From Acidobacteriota bacterium (GTDB taxonomy: Bacteria > Acidobacteriota > CAIWXX01): 64,000 nucleotides of DNA. The notes beneath the pieces are model-generated. The model did not search any database. It saw nothing but the letters and a program-made list of their open reading frames with translations, and was not told where the DNA came from. The stretch is from NCBI GenBank assembly GCA_040755995.1, contig JBFMAF010000032.1, positions 161,306-225,305 of the forward strand. The letters run 5' to 3'. This document shows positions 22,880-31,091 of the stretch, piece after piece. Made by a program: the position numbers and the translations under genes. Within the stretch, counting starts at the first letter, position 1. Every line of letters starts with the position of its first letter.

Positions 22880-23362
22880 GCGCCGCGAGCCGCTCGGAGA
22901 GCACCCGGCAGCGCCCGAGCAACAGGTAGCGAGTCACTCGCTTCTCGCGTATCAAAGAGACAAGCGCGGTACAGTCTGCCGGACAGCTGCCCGTGTGGAA
23001 ATTGTAGCTGCTACCAGCCGAGGCAGAATGCGAGACCCGTATCGCAAGGTCTGTTTCAGCATCCAGATCGACATTGGGAACTCTATCGAGACCGTCTGCT
23101 CGCGGGCCCGCGCAAGCGAGCTCAACAGCACCATGCGGCCTATGCCTCCAACCACACCGAACGAATTCTCCACCATCCTTCTAACCTCACGACTCGCAAG
23201 CGCGTCACCAAGAGAGTACGCATTGCGCAGCCATGTGGTTCCGATACTTGTGGGCGAGTATACGGCCCTCTCGATCTTGTCACGGGCGCGCCTCGGGAGC
23301 GGCTACCGAGCCCGTCCGGCGTTTGTGTCATGGCCCGCGACAGTTATAGAGTGAATGAAGAG

Positions 23363-26200
23363 ATGGCAGAGACGAGAACGCAGCCGGCGGCTGCGCTTGA
23401 AGCCGCACAAGAGAGGGTGCTGGAGATCGTACGGGAGCTGGCCGCCGAGATCCGGGGATATCGCGCGCTTCAAGCTGTGCGCGCCGAAGCCTCTCTCGAA
23501 CGGGACATCGGCTTCGGCAGCCTCGAACGAGTCGAGCTGATCGTGCGACTGGAGGCGGCGTTCGGGCGGGCGCTGGATGACCACTTCATCCAGATCGATA
23601 CGCCCGGCGACCTCGCGCGGGCAATCCTGGACACGGCTGAAGGCGAGCCTGCTGCATACTCCCCCGCACCCGCACAGTCGGTCGCCGAGGCGACCTTCAT
23701 CGACCTGGGCTCGACAACGATCTCCGAGGTGCTCTGGCGGCGGGCCCAAGCCGATCCCGATCGCCCGCACGTCTTCATGCGCGAAGATGACGGACACGAG
23801 GAGACGATCACATACGAGATGCTGTCGGTGGACGCGCGTGCCGTTGCCGGCGGGCTCCGTGACAGAGGTGTCGTCAAAGGTGACACGGTCGCACTGATGC
23901 TCCCCACGAGCCGCGGATTCCTCGCGGCGTTTCAGGGGATACTGATGGCCGGAGCGATCCCGGTGCCGATCTATCCGCCGATGCGATTCGACAGGCTCGA
24001 AGAGTACGCCCAGCGGCAATCTGCCATCCTTGCCGATGCCGGGGCCGTGTTGATGGTGACCATCCAGAAGGCTCTCCCCATCGCAGGGCTGCTGCGCCCG
24101 CTCGTTCCCTCCATGCGCCACGTCACTACCGTCGATGAGCTCAGGGCGACAGGAGCCCCCTGGCGCACTCCGAAGAGCGATCCGTCGGACCCGGCGCTCA
24201 TCCAATACACCTCGGGTAGCACAGGGAGCCCAAAGGGCGTACTGCTCACGCACGCCAACCTGGTGGCAAACATCAAGGCGATCGGAACGGCGGTCGAGCT
24301 ACGGCCCGACGACGTTACGGTGAGCTGGCTGCCCCTCTACCACGACATGGGCCTGATCGGATCGTGGCTCTTCTCGCTGGTCCACGGAATCCCGATCGAC
24401 GTCCAGTCGCCGATCGCTTTTCTGACGCGGCCCGAACGCTGGCTCTGGGCGCTGCACCGGCGGCGCGGTACGCTCTCGCCGGCTCCCAACTTCGCCTACG
24501 AGCTCTGCGTGAGGAAGGTACCCGATTCGGCTCTCGAAGGCCTCGATCTATCGACGTGGCGGTCGGCGCTCAACGGCGCCGAGCCGGTGAATCCGGACAC
24601 GATAGAGCGGTTCGCCCGCCGGTTCGTTCCGTGCGGCTTTCGCCGCGAGGCCTGTCTGCCGGTGTACGGTCTGGCCGAGACCTCGGTGGCTCTCTGCTTC
24701 CCGCCTGTCAACCGCCAGCCTCTGATCGATCGGGTGGACCGCGGGGACTACGAACGCGACGGGAGAGCCGAGCCGGCCGCTGCGAACGACCATCGGCCGC
24801 TGCGATTCGTCTCGGTCGGGAAGGCGCTGCCGGATCACGAAGTTCGCATTGTCGATGAAGCGGGCACGGATCTGCCCGAGCGGCACGTTGGCCGTCTCAT
24901 CTTCCGAGGCCCTTCGGTGATGCCCGGGTACTACAAGAAGCCCGAGGCCACCGCCGCAATCACCCTGCCCGGAGGATGGTTCGACAGCGGCGACCTGGCG
25001 TACCTGGCGGACGGCGAGATCTACATCGCAGGCCGGGTGAAGGACCTTATCATCAAGGCAGGCCGCAACCTGGTGCCGCAGGAAATCGAGGAAGTGGCGG
25101 CCTGTGTTGACGGTGTCCGCCGGGGATGCGTCGTTGCGTTCGGCGTAGCTCATCAAGAGACCGGCACGGAGAGTCTGGTGATCGTCGCCGAGACGCGCGC
25201 GACGGAGGCGGCCGAGTGGGAACGGATCGCCGCCGCCGTGATCAGCCACGTGGCCGGTACGATCGGTGTTCCACCGGATGTCGTGACGATGGTGCCGCCG
25301 GGATCCGTCCCGAAGACCTCCAGCGGCAAGATTCGCCGGACGGCCACGAAGGACCTGTACCTCCGCGGTGCCCTCGGGCGGCCTCCGCGCACGCCGCTTG
25401 CGACTCGGCTGCGCCTCGCGGCCGGTGTGGCGTGGGGCGAGCTGCGGCCCTGGCTGGCATTGCTGCCGCGCGGCGTCTACACCGCATATCTCGCGACCGT
25501 CCTGCCGCCGGTGGCTCTCCTCTCCTGGGCGCTGGCCTCGATCTTGCCGGGGCGGCGTTCCGTCCGCATCCTCGAACGCGTCACGTCGCGACTCGCCATG
25601 AGGCTCGCCGGTTGCAGGCTCTCGGTGGAGGGCCGAGAGAATCTGTCGATGGTGGGCCCCGTGCTTCTCGCCGTGAATCATACCTCCTACGCGGACGTCA
25701 CCTCGCTGCTGGCGCTGGTTCCCCGCCCGTTCGTGTTCGTCGCCAAGAGGGAAGTCCTCCGCTGGCCGATGGTGGCGACCTTCGTGAGACGGGCGGGGCA
25801 CCTGACGGTCGAACGTCGAGAGGTACAGCAGAGCGTTGCCGATGCCGGCCAGGTGGCTCCCGCCTTGCGCGACGGGGAAGCCGTGCTCGTCTTCCCCGAG
25901 GCGACCTTCACGGGCGCGGCGGGGCTCCGGCCGTTCCGGCTCGGCGTATTCAAGACATCCGTCGACACTGGCATTCCGATCGTCCCGATGGCCTTGCGCG
26001 GCGTGCGCCACGTGCTGCCGGAAGGGCGTTGGATTCCGCGGCCGGGGAGAGTCCATCTGTGGATCGGGCGTCCAGTTGCTCCCAACGGGACTGATTTCGC
26101 AGCCATGCTGGCTCTGCGGGACCAGGTCAGCGCGGAGATCGCGGCGCACTGCGGTGAGCCCGTGTTGGACCTGGTGGTCGGCGGCCCTAAGAAATCGTGA
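23363..26200 (+). CDS. ACP-FAAL-PlsC acyltransferase fusion
   Basis: N-terminal ACP (GFGSLERVEL), YTSGSTGSPKG, WLPLYHDMGLIG, PKTSSGK, C-terminal NHTSYAD and FPEATF. Confidence 0.9.
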   Translation: MAETRTQPAAALEAAQERVLEIVRELAAEIRGYRALQAVRAEASLERDIGFGSLERVELIVRLEAAFGRALDDHFIQIDTPGDLARAILDTAEGEPAAYSPAPAQSVAEATFIDLGSTTISEVLWRRAQADPDRPHVFMREDDGHEETITYEMLSVDARAVAGGLRDRGVVKGDTVALMLPTSRGFLAAFQGILMAGAIPVPIYPPMRFDRLEEYAQRQSAILADAGAVLMVTIQKALPIAGLLRPLVPSMRHVTTVDELRATGAPWRTPKSDPSDPALIQYTSGSTGSPKGVLLTHANLVANIKAIGTAVELRPDDVTVSWLPLYHDMGLIGSWLFSLVHGIPIDVQSPIAFLTRPERWLWALHRRRGTLSPAPNFAYELCVRKVPDSALEGLDLSTWRSALNGAEPVNPDTIERFARRFVPCGFRREACLPVYGLAETSVALCFPPVNRQPLIDRVDRGDYERDGRAEPAAANDHRPLRFVSVGKALPDHEVRIVDEAGTDLPERHVGRLIFRGPSVMPGYYKKPEATAAITLPGGWFDSGDLAYLADGEIYIAGRVKDLIIKAGRNLVPQEIEEVAACVDGVRRGCVVAFGVAHQETGTESLVIVAETRATEAAEWERIAAAVISHVAGTIGVPPDVVTMVPPGSVPKTSSGKIRRTATKDLYLRGALGRPPRTPLATRLRLAAGVAWGELRPWLALLPRGVYTAYLATVLPPVALLSWALASILPGRRSVRILERVTSRLAMRLAGCRLSVEGRENLSMVGPVLLAVNHTSYADVTSLLALVPRPFVFVAKREVLRWPMVATFVRRAGHLTVERREVQQSVADAGQVAPALRDGEAVLVFPEATFTGAAGLRPFRLGVFKTSVDTGIPIVPMALRGVRHVLPEGRWIPRPGRVHLWIGRPVAPNGTDFAAMLALRDQVSAEIAAHCGEPVLDLVVGGPKKS

Positions 26201-26323: not shown

Positions 26324-29128
26324 ATGATGCGAGAGAGGCGTAGTCCCAAGACCCCCGAGGACCCCGCTACGACCATCTCTCGCTGGACGGAGCGAGATCT
26401 GACGGCCGCCGCGAAGGACCTGTGCCCTGCCTTTCAGGTCGACGAGATCGTCGGGCAGGTCTCGGAATTGCTGGACAGCGACTTGTGTCCGATCGTCGCG
26501 GGGCCGGCTGGAGTAGGGAAGTCGGCCGTCGTGCACGAGCTCGTTCGTCGTGCAGCGGCGGGCGAGGGCCCCATGTCGCTCCACGGCAGGCGCGTCCTAC
26601 AGATGTCACTTTCGCGTGTTCGTTCGACGCTCCGAACTCCGGATCTGTTGGGCAGGGAGATGCGCGGATTGGTGGCCGCTCTTTCGGCCGAGGACGGCAT
26701 CTGCGTGTTCTTCCGTGACATGCACCTGGCATACTGGCAGAGCATCGAGCCGCAGTTCAGTGCGCTCGCTCTGCAGTTCAGAGGGCCCATCATCTGCGAA
26801 GGGGAGGCTGGTCTCGTGGCTGCGATGTTCGAGGAGAATCCGGAGCTTGCGGAGCGCTACGTGGTTGTGGGCCTGGATGAGCCGTCGCTCGCGAAGGCGA
26901 CAGAGATGTTGCAGTCGTGGGCCGAGGAACAGGCCCGCCGCGGGCAGTTCGCGTTCACAACGGAGGCCGTGCGGGAGGGCGTTCTGTTGTCGCATCGGTT
27001 CCTCGTCCGAAGCAGGTTCCCCAGGAAGGCTATTGACCTCCTCCAGCACGTGGCACGCCTCGCAGGCGGGCGAACGGTGACGGATGCCGACGTCTTCGAA
27101 CGGTTCTGCAGGACCCACAGGATTCCACGCGACCTGGTGGACCCTGCGGTGCCTCTCGACCTGGATGCACTGAAGGACAGATTCGAGGCCCTCATACTGG
27201 GACAGAACGAGGCGGTCGAATCCGCCATACAGATGATCAGCCGCATCAAGTCGGGGCTGACGGACGTGCGCCGGCCGTTCGGCGTGTACTTGTATGCCGG
27301 GCCCACCGGCGTCGGCAAGACCCTGCTGGCCCAGTGCCTGGCCGAATACCTCTTCGGTAGTCGCGACCGGATGATCCGCCTGAACATGGCAGATTACCGT
27401 GACGAAAGGGCCTTTCATTCGCTCTTTGGCAATCCGGATGCCCACACCAACAGCCTTCGGCGAGGCCTGTTGACGCAGAGGCTGATGGGGCAGTCCCTGG
27501 CGGTGCTCCTTCTGGACGAGTTCGAAAAGGCTCACGAACGCGTCCACGACGGCTTCCTCCAGCTTTTCGACGAGGGTTCTTTCATCAACGGCGACGGAGA
27601 GGTGGTCTCCTGCCGTTCCTGTCTCATCATCGCCACGACGAATGCGGGCTCGGACGTCTACCGCCGGCAGGCGCTGGGGTTCACCAATCCCGTCGAGCTT
27701 GATGCCACGGACCGGGAGCTCGACCGCCGTCTCCACCAGGTTTTCCGATTTGAGTTCCTCAACCGGTTTGACGAGATTGTCCATTTCCATCCACTCACGC
27801 GGGAAGACATCCGGACGATTGCGCGGCGTGAGCTGTCCATGCTCGCTGAGCGCACGGGCCTCAAGCAGCGACGGCTCGCCGTCGAAGTGGACGAGTCGTT
27901 GCTCGACTGGCTGATGCTTCACGGGTACGACCCGCTATACGGAGCGCGGTTTCTGCGGCGGACGGTGGAGCGGCGGGTGGCCAGCGAGCTTGCAGAGGCG
28001 ATCGTCCGTTCGGCTCCATGCGAAGGCGCCCGCATCGTGCTCGGCGTCCAGCGCCATCGTGTGACTGCCAGAGTTGCCCAATCGCAGCAGGCCTCACCAG
28101 CTCAGAGGGAGTCAGTCATACTACCGGTCGGCACGACCGAGGTCACGCGCCGGCTTGAGAAAGCTGCCATCCTCCAGGAGGTCGGCCGTCTGATCGAAAG
28201 AGCGAGCCGGCATCTTTCGACGCTCGAGCTCAAGAGAGCCGAGCGCAGTCGATTGCTCGCTCACATCAACCAGGCCGGGTTCTGGGACAACGCGAGGGAA
28301 TCCAAGTCGGTCGTTGACCGCTACCGTGAGGTGGACCTCGAGATACAGGCGGAGCAACGTCTCGCCGACCCTGTCCAGCGACTGGTCGAGCTGCGGAGCA
28401 TCGACGCGGACAGGCAGGAGGACCTCCGCAGCCTCGCCCGCGCCTGGGAGGTGGCGGCGCGGGCAGTGGGCGAGTGGGAGAGCCGAGCGGTGGAACAGGA
28501 GTCGGCCAGCGCCATTTGGCTGCTGGTCTCGAACGCCGACCCGCTCAGAGTTGCAGGCAAGTGGGTGAGGGACGTCGCCCAGATGGAGCTCCACTGGTGT
28601 GCCAGGCTGGAGCTGGCGGCTGCGGTCGTCGGCTACGAAGCCACCGCCGACGAGTGCCATCGCGTGGCCATAGAAATAGAAGGACCGGGGGCCGAGGGCT
28701 ACCTCACAATGGAGGAGGGCATACATCGACTGCGGTGCCAGGGAGACCATGACGCGCGCGCCCGCGTCGAGATCGTCACACGCAGTCAGACGCCCCCAGA
28801 CGGGCAGTCGTCGTTTATCTCCGTGGCACGCCGCACAGGCCTCTTCGGAATCGAGATCACATGCCGTGGCCGCCTGGTGCTGCCGGAGAGGGGGCTCTCG
28901 GCCGAGTTCCTGGCAGGCAATCCGGCTACGCTCAACCATCTTCTCTGCGACCTCGACAGGGCCTGGAGAAACGCCAAAGCGGAGTCATCGCAGGTGGCCC
29001 GGGTCTACGCAGAGGCCGGCGGCGCGCGCGATCATCGGACAGGCGCATTCGTTCCGCGCCTGAAGGACGTCCTCAGAGGCAATCTGGATCGCTTCCTCGA
29101 AGCGCACCGGCGGAACCGAGCGCAGTAG
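26324..29128 (+). CDS. ClpA/B-type AAA+ ATPase fused to a degenerate peptide-chain release factor (RF2/PCRF-like) module
   Basis: GPAGVGKS; GPTGVGKT, LLLDEFEKAH, EFLNRFDE, YGARFLRR. C-terminal GFWDN, EGPGAEGYLTMEEGIHRL, RDHRTG...VLRGNLDRFLEA. The ORF extends to 26222; TTGACA at 26258 favours the later start. Confidence 0.82.
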   Translation: MMRERRSPKTPEDPATTISRWTERDLTAAAKDLCPAFQVDEIVGQVSELLDSDLCPIVAGPAGVGKSAVVHELVRRAAAGEGPMSLHGRRVLQMSLSRVRSTLRTPDLLGREMRGLVAALSAEDGICVFFRDMHLAYWQSIEPQFSALALQFRGPIICEGEAGLVAAMFEENPELAERYVVVGLDEPSLAKATEMLQSWAEEQARRGQFAFTTEAVREGVLLSHRFLVRSRFPRKAIDLLQHVARLAGGRTVTDADVFERFCRTHRIPRDLVDPAVPLDLDALKDRFEALILGQNEAVESAIQMISRIKSGLTDVRRPFGVYLYAGPTGVGKTLLAQCLAEYLFGSRDRMIRLNMADYRDERAFHSLFGNPDAHTNSLRRGLLTQRLMGQSLAVLLLDEFEKAHERVHDGFLQLFDEGSFINGDGEVVSCRSCLIIATTNAGSDVYRRQALGFTNPVELDATDRELDRRLHQVFRFEFLNRFDEIVHFHPLTREDIRTIARRELSMLAERTGLKQRRLAVEVDESLLDWLMLHGYDPLYGARFLRRTVERRVASELAEAIVRSAPCEGARIVLGVQRHRVTARVAQSQQASPAQRESVILPVGTTEVTRRLEKAAILQEVGRLIERASRHLSTLELKRAERSRLLAHINQAGFWDNARESKSVVDRYREVDLEIQAEQRLADPVQRLVELRSIDADRQEDLRSLARAWEVAARAVGEWESRAVEQESASAIWLLVSNADPLRVAGKWVRDVAQMELHWCARLELAAAVVGYEATADECHRVAIEIEGPGAEGYLTMEEGIHRLRCQGDHDARARVEIVTRSQTPPDGQSSFISVARRTGLFGIEITCRGRLVLPERGLSAEFLAGNPATLNHLLCDLDRAWRNAKAESSQVARVYAEAGGARDHRTGAFVPRLKDVLRGNLDRFLEAHRRNRAQ

Positions 29129-29236: not shown

Positions 29237-29476
29237 ATGAAAACAGTCTCATTGAAAGTCAGTGAAGATCTTGACGCACGACTTTGGCTGCTGGCAAGAC
29301 GGAGCCGGTCCACGAAATCGGCAGTATTGCGGCAGGCGATCGAGAATCATCTGGCGCGTGGCAAGCGAGCGCCGGCCGGCGTCTTCCTGGAGCTCGCACG
29401 GGATCTGGCCGGGTGCGTTGAGGGGCCTAGGGATCTGTCCACGAACAAGGGGTACATGAGGCGGTACGGCCGGTGA
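29237..29476 (+). CDS. CopG/RHH antitoxin (VapB-like)
   Basis: MKTVSLKVSEDL...KSAVLRQAIE RHH pattern; 4-bp overlap with the PIN gene. Confidence 0.85.
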   Translation: MKTVSLKVSEDLDARLWLLARRSRSTKSAVLRQAIENHLARGKRAPAGVFLELARDLAGCVEGPRDLSTNKGYMRRYGR

Positions 29477-29895
29477 AACAGGTCGTTCTGTTCGATACCG
29501 GGCCCCTGGTGGCTTTCATCAACGCTCGGGACAAGTACCACGAGTGGGCGAAGGCCCAGTTGGCGGAGATTCGGCCGCCTCTCTGGACATGCGAGGCGGT
29601 GTTGTCAGAGGCGTGTTTTCTCCTGCGGGAAACGCCGCGGGGGCCAGCCGCCGTTCTGGAGCTGCTGGAGCGCGGGCTGGTCGAGGTGCCGTTTCACATC
29701 GGAATGGACCCGCGTGCTGTCCGAAACCTCCTGGCACGCTACGCGTCAGTCCCGATGTCACTGGCGGACGCCTGCCTCGTGCGAATGTCGGAGGCTCACA
29801 CCGGCAGCACTGTGTTTACACTCGACGGCGACTTCAGGATCTACCGCCGGAGTGGCCGGCAGGTAATCCCGCTCAGAATTCCCGACGATCTTTGA
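29473..29895 (+). CDS. PIN-domain toxin (VapC-like)
   Basis: LFDTGPLVA, VLSEA, SLADA, FTLDGDF acidic PIN residues. Confidence 0.9.
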   Translation: MKQVVLFDTGPLVAFINARDKYHEWAKAQLAEIRPPLWTCEAVLSEACFLLRETPRGPAAVLELLERGLVEVPFHIGMDPRAVRNLLARYASVPMSLADACLVRMSEAHTGSTVFTLDGDFRIYRRSGRQVIPLRIPDDL

Positions 29896-30728: not shown

Positions 30729-31091
30729 ATGGGAGCAACACAGGTAACAGTAACGGTTCGCAATCCGGCAGACCCGGAGAAGGCGTGGGAGGGTCTTTTC
30801 CTGGTAGATACGGGCGCGGTCGATTCACTTGTCCCGGGCAAGGCGCTTCGAAGCATCGGGCTGGCTCCGAAAGCGAAGCGCACGTTTGAGCTCGCAGATG
30901 GGTCAGAGGTAAAGCTGGACATCACCACGGGGGATTTGGAGTTCATGGGAGAGGTCGTAGGTTCCACCCTCATCTTTGGCGGCGACGATGCCGAACCAAT
31001 CCTCGGTGTGACGGCACTTGAATCCGTCGGCATCGAGGTAGACCCCCGCAGCCAGCGGCTCAAGCGACTTCCTGCAGCACGGCTCAAGTAG
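30729..31091 (+). CDS. Clan AA (retropepsin-like) aspartyl protease
   Basis: LVDTGA active-site motif and ILGVTALE; AGGAGG RBS. Confidence 0.85.
   Translation: MGATQVTVTVRNPADPEKAWEGLFLVDTGAVDSLVPGKALRSIGLAPKAKRTFELADGSEVKLDITTGDLEFMGEVVGSTLIFGGDDAEPILGVTALESVGIEVDPRSQRLKRLPAARLK

Follow-up and report, generated by a model that had tools for sequence, protein, structure and literature searches.

The window analysed here, a stretch of 64,000 nucleotides from an Acidobacteriota bacterium (contig JBFMAF010000032.1, assembly GCA_040755995.1), contains at 26324..29128 on the forward strand a gene whose product joins a Clp-type double AAA+ ATPase to a catalytically dead fold of release factor 2 (RF2). 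A preliminary description of the same sequence had proposed this fusion of a Clp AAA+ protein with an RF2-like C-terminus, and a Pfam PCRF match (E 3.1e-8) together with the fold match of an AlphaFold model confirm it. The protein and its homologues form a real and conserved Clp class with a pseudo-release factor, which is apparently undescribed and stands outside ClpA, ClpB and ClpC as well as outside the active release factors. The features of the gene are listed below, with D1 and D2 denoting the first and second AAA+ module.

26324..29128 (+): whole gene, 934 amino acids (aa) from the ATG; Clp-type double AAA+ ATPase fused to a dead RF2 fold
26366..27133 (+): D1 AAA+ module, predicted from the 55-member alignment to be catalytically dead
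26501-26524 (+): Walker A of D1, GPAGVGKS, kept
26705-26722 (+): Walker B of D1, with RD in place of DE (alignment)
27146..28093 (+): D2 AAA+ module with an intact ATPase site (Pfam AAA_2 and ClpB_D2-small)
27428..27466 (+): degenerate pore-1 loop of D2, GNPDAHTNSLRRG in place of a GYVG-type loop, with His374 at the Tyr position
27674..27682 (+): LGF motif (L451-G452-F453) at the position of the ClpP-docking loop (55-member alignment)
28157..28501 (+): helical bundle like RF2 domain 1, with an FW tip at 28280-28285 (model and alignment)
28502..28783 (+): RF2 domain 2-like region, core ExGxHR kept (28712-28729), alpha5-tip GxGG, SPF and RRHTSF lost
28784..28978 (+): shortened domain 3 with three strands and a helix of 17 residues (model and alignment)
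28811-28864 (+): former GGQ hairpin, now basic, with TGL for GGQ (alignment)
28979..29113 (+): RF2 domain 4-like region, core of RxY, DxRTG and GxL kept (alignment)

The release-factor module

Pfam searches of the 934-aa protein return AAA_lid_9 (residues 189-243), AAA_2 (318-485), ClpB_D2-small (491-564) and PCRF (641-815), the last with 34.1 bits against a curated cut-off of 24, and no match to RF-1 (the GGQ domain) or Clp_N at E<=1. Of the two release-factor families named for the C-terminus in the preliminary description, PCRF is thus recovered and RF-1 is not; the motifs given there (FFRDMH, GFWDN, IEGPGAEGYLTMEEGIHRL, DHRTG and VLRGNLDRFLEA) are all present in the translation. Among the NCBIfam models, the C-terminal 342 aa match prfB with E 1e-13 and prfA with only 4.6e-3, and the mean identity of the module is 20.5% to RF2 against 17.9% to RF1. 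The best NCBIfam score of the protein is to ClpB (E 1.3e-82, mostly over D2), at 278.5 bits against a cut-off of 1232; ClpA gives E 2.4e-73 and 247.5 bits, where the cut-off is 993.

An AlphaFold2 model of residues 593-934, built on a 112-sequence alignment, has a mean predicted local distance difference test score (pLDDT) of 94.8 and a predicted template modelling score (pTM) of 0.87, and supersedes an earlier shallow run on four sequences (pLDDT 62), which carried no information on domain 3. All Foldseek matches listed for this model are RF1 or RF2 chains (best E 2.5e-15). VIA-align, run against 48,161 chains, places RF1 1zbt first (Z 20.1, root-mean-square deviation (rmsd) 4.7, 269 residues aligned), with RF2 6szs (Z 20.0, rmsd 10.1, 273 aligned) and RF1 6osk (Z 18.4, rmsd 2.2, 148 aligned) behind it; PrfH scores Z 10.4 and the best chain that is not a release factor Z 8.8. 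The top structural matches thus comprise only factors of the ribosomal A site, namely RF1, RF2, mtRF1 and PrfH, and the structural likeness to RF1/RF2 that had been anticipated for the C-terminus holds (Foldseek E 2.5e-15, VIA-align Z 18-20). In the modelled structure all four RF2 domains appear, in order. The earlier statement that SPF and GGQ are absent agrees with the alignments, but domain 3 itself is present in degenerate and shortened form.

What the module has kept and lost was assessed on 89 aligned modules, 58 from protein searches and 31 from genome loci, leaving out three near-duplicate loci, two members that lack the release-factor part and two rows in the wrong frame. The set was reduced to 80 modules at <60% identity (mean pairwise identity 25%) and compared with 25 RF2 sequences. 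Only 17 of 84 residues invariant in RF2 are kept in >=70% of the modules, and 67 are not. Conserved are the domain-1 Trp (78/80), the G-L-E-G-H of domain 2, with E, G and H in all 80 modules, and in domain 4 the R-x-Y (R 80/80, Y 77/80), a D (79/80) and the last Gly (76/80). GGQ occurs in none of the 89 modules; in this protein G839 aligns with its second G and L840 with the Q, in rough agreement with a second alignment. Likewise lost are SPF (its Pro is found in 5% of the 80 modules), RRHTSF, the catalytic Gln, NERSQ, the three glycines of the alpha5 tip (6-11%) and the switch-loop aromatic residue, which is a gap in 76/80. An incidental PxT is seen in two of the 89 modules, in a loop of variable length. 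According to the partial text of PMC1586002, the alpha5-tip glycines contact the first base of the stop codon. Helix alpha7 together with the switch is reduced from 47 residues in RF2 to a median of 28. Since alpha7 bridges the ribosomal subunits in RF2 (excerpts of 10.1101/091256), the shortened helix makes it unlikely that the module reaches the peptidyl-transferase centre.

The charge of the module has changed as well. Its net charge is -2, compared with -14 in RF2. The former GGQ hairpin is net basic in 73/80 modules (median +3) against 11/25 RF2, and domain 4 is net positive in 69/80 against 5/25, while domain 1 and alpha7 are still acidic. The basic hairpin and domain 4 suggest a putative surface for RNA binding rather than mimicry of tRNA.

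The host genome (7.7 Mb, 99.8% complete) contains intact, separate RF1 and RF2, as well as a stand-alone RF-1-domain open reading frame (ORF) of 165 aa. Its Clp proteins are one ClpA, one ClpC-like and two ClpB-like proteins, labels that we assigned from spacer length and motifs, and it has one full ClpP. The fusion gene is therefore an addition to this complement and not a broken prfB. The preliminary description had called for intact prfA and prfB elsewhere in the genome and had regarded the module as non-hydrolytic; both genes are found, and GGQ is missing throughout the family. The second ClpB-like protein (G000:C28:126232-128859) has GLVG instead of GYVG in its D2 pore loop.

The module resembles PrfB in its four domains in order, in ExGxHR, RxY, DxRT and the domain-1 FW, and in being nearer to RF2 than to RF1. 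Unlike PrfB it lacks GGQ, SPF, the alpha5-tip GG and the switch aromatic, has a short alpha7, is not acidic and is attached to an ATPase. PrfH (associated with RtcB) and ArfB are likewise sporadic release-factor paralogues, and PrfH shares the fold at the Z score given above; however, the bacterial paralogues surveyed in PMC6514570 keep the catalytic glutamine, as far as its excerpted text goes, in contrast to the fusion, which lacks GGQ and keeps domain 1, the domain that PrfH has lost. No RtcB-like neighbour recurs at the 85 loci whose surroundings were inspected.

The ATPase and its putative ClpP-docking loop

The anatomy of the ATPase was derived from 55 full-length members aligned with the four Clps of the host genome. 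The protein belongs to the tandem AAA+ proteins with Clp-type lid and D2-small domains (Pfam), as do class-1 Hsp100/Clp ATPases. D1 lacks the sensor-1 Thr, the arginine fingers and the KYR pore loop; its Walker A lysine persists in 52/55 members, but the first-position D of Walker B in only one and the second-position E in three. The site of D2 is complete (GPTGVGKT, LLLDE, sensor 1 N440, arginine finger R481, sensor 2 R542), and each of these five elements is conserved in 52-53 of the 55. The degenerate D1 Walker B (FFRDMH) of the preliminary description is borne out, RD replacing a DE pair that nearly all members have lost, and so is the missing Clp N-domain, by Pfam and by the short stretch ahead of D1: about 20 residues here and at most 66 in 52/55 members, against ~180 in the Clps of the host. 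Neither a Clp N-domain nor an M-domain was found in this protein by Pfam or in the alignment. The spacer from the D1 lid to D2 measures 21-33 aa in 54/55 members, compared with 29 in the host's ClpA, 74 in its ClpC and 150 in ClpB, and the release-factor module follows directly on the D2 small domain. Some longer members (P0127, P0135, P0145, L142:634-4404 and similar) have ~250 extra N-terminal residues, with a HEAT_2 match in L142; they keep the D1 KY-type pore loop and have a shortened D2 loop.

The LGF motif aligns with IGF of the host's ClpA and VGF of its ClpC, and both of its ClpBs are without it. Among the 55 members the G of this xGF loop is conserved in 53 and the F in 50, which matches the conservation of the catalytic residues; in the other subfamilies the pattern is found in 33/35 sequences, 11 of which are also among the 55. 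This loop had been overlooked in the preliminary description, and its retention points to a protease partner. Such an LGF motif was used to infer ClpP partnership for the ClpI class (partial text of PMC10149685).

The pore loops, by contrast with the docking loop, are degenerate. At the position of the D2 pore tyrosine the 55 members have Tyr in 11 cases, His in 8, Trp and Phe in one each and a gap in 9, and GYVG is absent from all 77 sequences searched (0/42 in the protein's own subfamily, 0/35 in others). The KY-type loop of D1 is found in none of the 42 sequences of the own subfamily and in at least 25 of the 35 others, a minimum since the pattern missed at least two further members visible in the alignment. 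In ClpA, the loss of either pore tyrosine cripples degradation, hexamers without the D2 pore tyrosines degrade unfolded substrates but not native ones, and the unfolding of native proteins requires the pore loops (excerpts of PMC8666677). The term unfoldase used in the preliminary description fares poorly here, with D1 lacking Walker B DE, sensor 1, arginine fingers and pore Tyr, and D2 lacking GYVG. The degenerate loops and the behaviour of the ClpA mutants therefore make this label doubtful, and a role in opening the gate of ClpP or in translocating unfolded chains would suit the data better.

The family is thus like ClpA and ClpC in its two AAA+ modules, its intact D2 site, the xGF loop at the equal position and its short, ClpA-like spacer. 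It is unlike them in the missing N-domain, the dead D1, the loss of KYR and GYVG and the 340-aa C-terminal RF2 fold, and its D2 branches apart from those of the four host Clps. From ClpB it differs by the absent M-domain and by carrying the xGF loop. ClpI offers a parallel as an accessory Clp class defined bioinformatically, but possesses the N- and M-domains that the fusion lacks; the words 'release factor', 'PCRF' and 'fusion' do not occur in PMC10149685.

Distribution, phylogeny and selection

A profile built from four C-terminal sequences and run against 1.84 billion cluster representatives (clustered at 50% identity) gave 638 matches at E<=0.001, 184 at <=1e-10 and 89 at <=1e-30, and members were taken from the best 150 of the 638. 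Among 154 stored proteins, 44 have 895-1000 aa; short profile matches are indistinguishable from fragments. A candidate stand-alone module (P0141, 364 aa) was rejected and treated as a fragment, because it shares 88% identity with the C-terminus of a fusion of 970 aa. By source name, members come from Hyalangium, Haliangium, Rubinisphaera italica, other Planctomycetota and Chloroflexota, and a RefSeq/UniRef record of Rubinisphaera italica belongs to the family. Look-alike clusters of Bacteroidota and Pseudomonadota in the Atlas serve as leads only.

The family is widespread in bacteria, in several phyla, but patchy. It is carried by 2/301 genomes of the host's phylum at E<=1e-150 (the set includes three unpublished genomes, and no sequence from those was used), by 1/3 genomes of its class, by 14/201 genomes of the phylum of the Haliangium record and 10/61 of its order, and by 22/201 genomes of the phylum of the Planctomycetota record at E<=1e-135. 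These counts are lower bounds, because the cut-offs were set above the scores of canonical Clps and many genomes are incomplete.

In the tree of D2, one branch separates 31 members from the four canonical Clps (SH-aLRT, an approximate likelihood ratio test, 100). The tree of the release-factor part likewise separates 25 members from 10 RF2 and 4 RF1 (support 100/100) and is compatible with an origin of the module from RF2 or from the stem of RF1 and RF2. Both trees contain similar subfamilies, which is consistent with a single old fusion. No fusion keeping GGQ was found among the 89 modules or among the seven matches of a weak search for longer forms. Ratios of nonsynonymous to synonymous substitution rates (dN/dS), from three small gene sets of 7, 2 and 2 genes with one value saturated, are 0.02-0.18 for D1/D2, 0.05-0.29 for domains 1, 2 and 4 of the module and 0.17-0.48 for domain 3. 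All parts of the protein are under purifying selection. Copies with large internal deletions or frameshifts were also seen (L014, L018, L019, L025, L047, L007, L023); the deletions lie on five low-coverage or short-contig loci, two of which share the same deletion, the frameshifts in L007 and L023, and these broken copies reflect either decay or assembly error.

A literature search by title and abstract opening, mostly of journals without subscription, found no description of the fusion. Its ATPase part may be covered in a phylogeny of proteobacterial ClpC proteins that reportedly appeared in 2018. Public precomputed data show the Pfam architecture, and the family is therefore likely to be unremarked database knowledge; it is hidden in annotation because public sources name its members ClpC, ClpA, 'AAA family ATPase' or, in the case of fragments, RF2. 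The term 'clp' does not occur in the excerpted text of the release-factor survey PMC6514570, whose supplementary lists could mention the architecture. The compared Clp classes choose their substrates by N-domains and adaptors, and the family departs from them as it does from the Gln-keeping release-factor paralogues: a dead yet selected RF2 fold and a ClpP-docking motor are kept together across Myxococcota, Planctomycetota, Chloroflexota and other phyla.

Possible function and genomic context

We tentatively interpret the protein, at somewhat less than even chances, as an accessory, stand-alone Clp ATPase that works with ClpP and whose repurposed RF2 fold directs it to RNA or ribosomes without mimicking an A-site factor. 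Of its parts, the partnership with ClpP is probable, judging from the docking loop; ClpP was detected in 9/10 carrier genomes searched. The targeting of RNA or ribosomes, to which ancestry and charge point, stands at about an even chance. By analogy with Clp biology, the protein would form a hexamer in which D1 binds nucleotide as a scaffold and D2 is active, and the xGF loops would dock this ring on the ordinary housekeeping ClpP and hold its gate open. Its grip would be too weak for native proteins, so that only chains already unfolded would pass. Such weak threading also fits the other subfamilies, because at least 25/35 of them have the KY-type D1 loop and none of the 35 has GYVG. Least secure are the last steps, in which the six C-terminal modules, in a compact RF2-like shape, might bind rRNA, tRNA or mRNA through their basic side and keep the protease close to translation complexes that are stalled or damaged, with unfolded nascent chains or peptidyl-tRNA as the likely substrates. 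The module itself would neither read stop codons nor hydrolyse peptidyl-tRNA. ClpP opened by acyldepsipeptides (ADEP) is known to degrade nascent chains.

In its most specific form, a single-gene coupler of ribosome and protease with the dead RF2 fold anchoring a ClpP-gating ring to translation complexes that have stalled or been damaged, the proposal is possible though doubtful. If true, stalled translation would lead to proteolysis of nascent chains independently of tags, with neither tmRNA tagging nor RqcH alanine tails involved. Complementarity with RqcH was considered and rejected, NFACT_N being present in 3/5 carriers and not in the host genome, in no pattern. The coupler would realise the Vms1-Cdc48 logic in bacteria as a fusion, made from an unrelated bacterial release-factor fold. 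The release-factor-like protein Vms1 interacts with the AAA+ ATPase Cdc48 (excerpts of PMC6514570), which together with VLRF1 provides an analogy, not a homology, for a release-factor-like domain linked to an AAA+ ATPase; Dom34 and MRPS35, from the same excerpts, are cases of release-factor folds without Gln in non-catalytic use. Vms1 and Dom34, however, are separate proteins with the unrelated aeRF1 fold, and MRPS35 consists of domain 3 only.

Several observations weigh against our interpretation. Both pore loops are degenerate in the own subfamily, so that translocation into ClpP may be absent. The basic hairpin is moderately exceptional, ranking in the top 20% of same-length windows in 49/79 proteins, and its charge is dominated by Arg in hosts that are mostly GC-rich. 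Domain 3, which carries the hairpin, is the most relaxed part by dN/dS and is deleted or cut down in 5/89 modules (L119:7964-10657, L120:7700-10663, L145:724-4086, L146:757-4101 and L140:136-4281, from two phyla, where domains 1, 2 and 4 remain). The 17 kept residues look like a fold core, judging from inferred burial. In two genomes the module is missing from an intact member of 620 aa that is nested in the own subfamily, and no translation, rescue or protease gene recurs at the 85 loci. The two nearly identical 620-aa members (L126:1444-3306 and L127:1441-3303, in G598 and G573) sit on multi-megabase contigs, with one RF2-sized match elsewhere in each genome; they retain the ring and the xGF motif and provide a natural control for the role of the module.

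The alternative that survives best, although on balance unlikely, has the protein as a ClpP partner in which the module derived from RF2 serves as an integral adaptor for binding proteins, unconnected to translation and kept only as a fold in place of the N-domain. It accounts for the retention of core residues only (17/84), the missing Clp N-domain, the HEAT repeats added in some members, the complete loss of the module in two genomes and the lack of ribosome-related neighbours. Against it speak the basic charge confined to the former hairpin and domain 4 and the fact that no non-ribosomal protein exceeds Z 8.8 against the model. Should the protein bind neither ribosomes nor RNA, it would still be a new Clp class, and its release-factor fold would have been co-opted for a role outside the ribosome.

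That an A-site release-factor mimic brings a threading unfoldase to stalled ribosomes for chain extraction or complex splitting, a reading close to that of the preliminary description, is distinctly unlikely. The presence of four RF2 domains in this protein and the domain-1 Trp in 78/80 speak for it; ArfA-RF2 rescue does not need SPF, and the L11 stalk is a contact of domain 1 (partial text of 10.1101/091256), although a literature search turned up no residue-level account of the domain-1 Trp touching L11. The model is also nearer to free or pre-accommodated compact forms (TM-score 0.50-0.54) than to extended RF2 (0.41-0.46), which is weak evidence because no RF2 model was folded the same way as a control. 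The name of a release-factor mimic nevertheless fails on the lost alpha5-tip glycines, anticodon loop, NERSQ and switch-loop aromatic, on an alpha7 that is too short and on the vanished acidity of RF2, and the degenerate pore loops speak against threading. No RF3 scores over the cut-off in the host genome, which argues against this mimic; one does so in 2/5 carrier genomes, and RF3 was rejected as a partner.

It is improbable that the protein is a decoy or conflict sensor, its dead RF2 fold luring phage or toxin proteins directed against release factors and passing them on to ClpP. Patchy presence (2/301, 14/201, 22/201 and 10/61 genomes), copies with internal deletions, and toxin-antitoxin (TA)-type genes downstream here and in one low-GC lineage would suit it. 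A decoy is, however, expected to keep the RF2 surface, which is lost. No match to the family exists in 50,697 phage records, and the best 20 of 70 plasmid matches are 26-28% identical and are prfB where annotated. Matches of four members in PADLOC-DB 2.0 span AAA stretches only, with no full-length match to a system protein, and most neighbourhoods hold ordinary metabolic or signalling genes. Quite improbable, too, is a ClpP-independent remodeller of an RNA-protein complex, in which D2 hydrolysis would move the attached modules without threading a chain. It agrees with an active D2 beside degenerate pore loops, an Arg-rich helix ahead of the D1 pore in 35/42 of the own subfamily and the direct attachment of the module to the D2 small domain, but not with an xGF loop conserved as well as the catalytic residues, nor with the ring and motif kept by members that lack the module. 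Finally, a neutral relic of a chance fusion, or an assembly artefact, is barely credible and largely refuted by selection and conservation: secondary losses and broken copies exist, yet against this reading stand 89 representatives from a library clustered at 50% identity (E<=1e-30), residues invariant despite 25% mean pairwise identity, dN/dS well under 1 and similar subfamilies in both trees.

The neighbourhoods comprise 302 ORFs from 85 loci, many with 1.5-kb flanks or on short contigs, and contain no conserved operon or partner gene. A scan for promoters and terminators gave no signal above shuffled sequence. The only groups of neighbours that recur are kinase-like ORFs at 10 loci, by our reading of the sequences, and TA-type genes next to closely related low-GC copies; Pfam assigns miscellaneous functions to 27 neighbours. 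In the window, the fusion gene lies between a gene for an acyl carrier protein (ACP)/AMP-ligase/acyltransferase and a ribbon-helix-helix (RHH)-PIN pair (Pfam). The upstream gene (23330-26200, +) encodes a 956-aa protein with carrier, AMP-binding and acyltransferase domains and is not conserved beside homologues. Eight low-GC loci only (L015:2-547 and seven related ones) encode just upstream a 180-aa protein with a weak DUF6847 match. The RHH and PIN pair directly downstream (29237-29895, +) is of VapBC type; at the corresponding place in related low-GC loci stand TA-type genes of another kind, for a Pol-beta nucleotidyltransferase and a HepT-like protein. Further downstream, a small aspartyl-protease-like ORF (30729-31091, +), below the Pfam cut-off, lies among several short genes.

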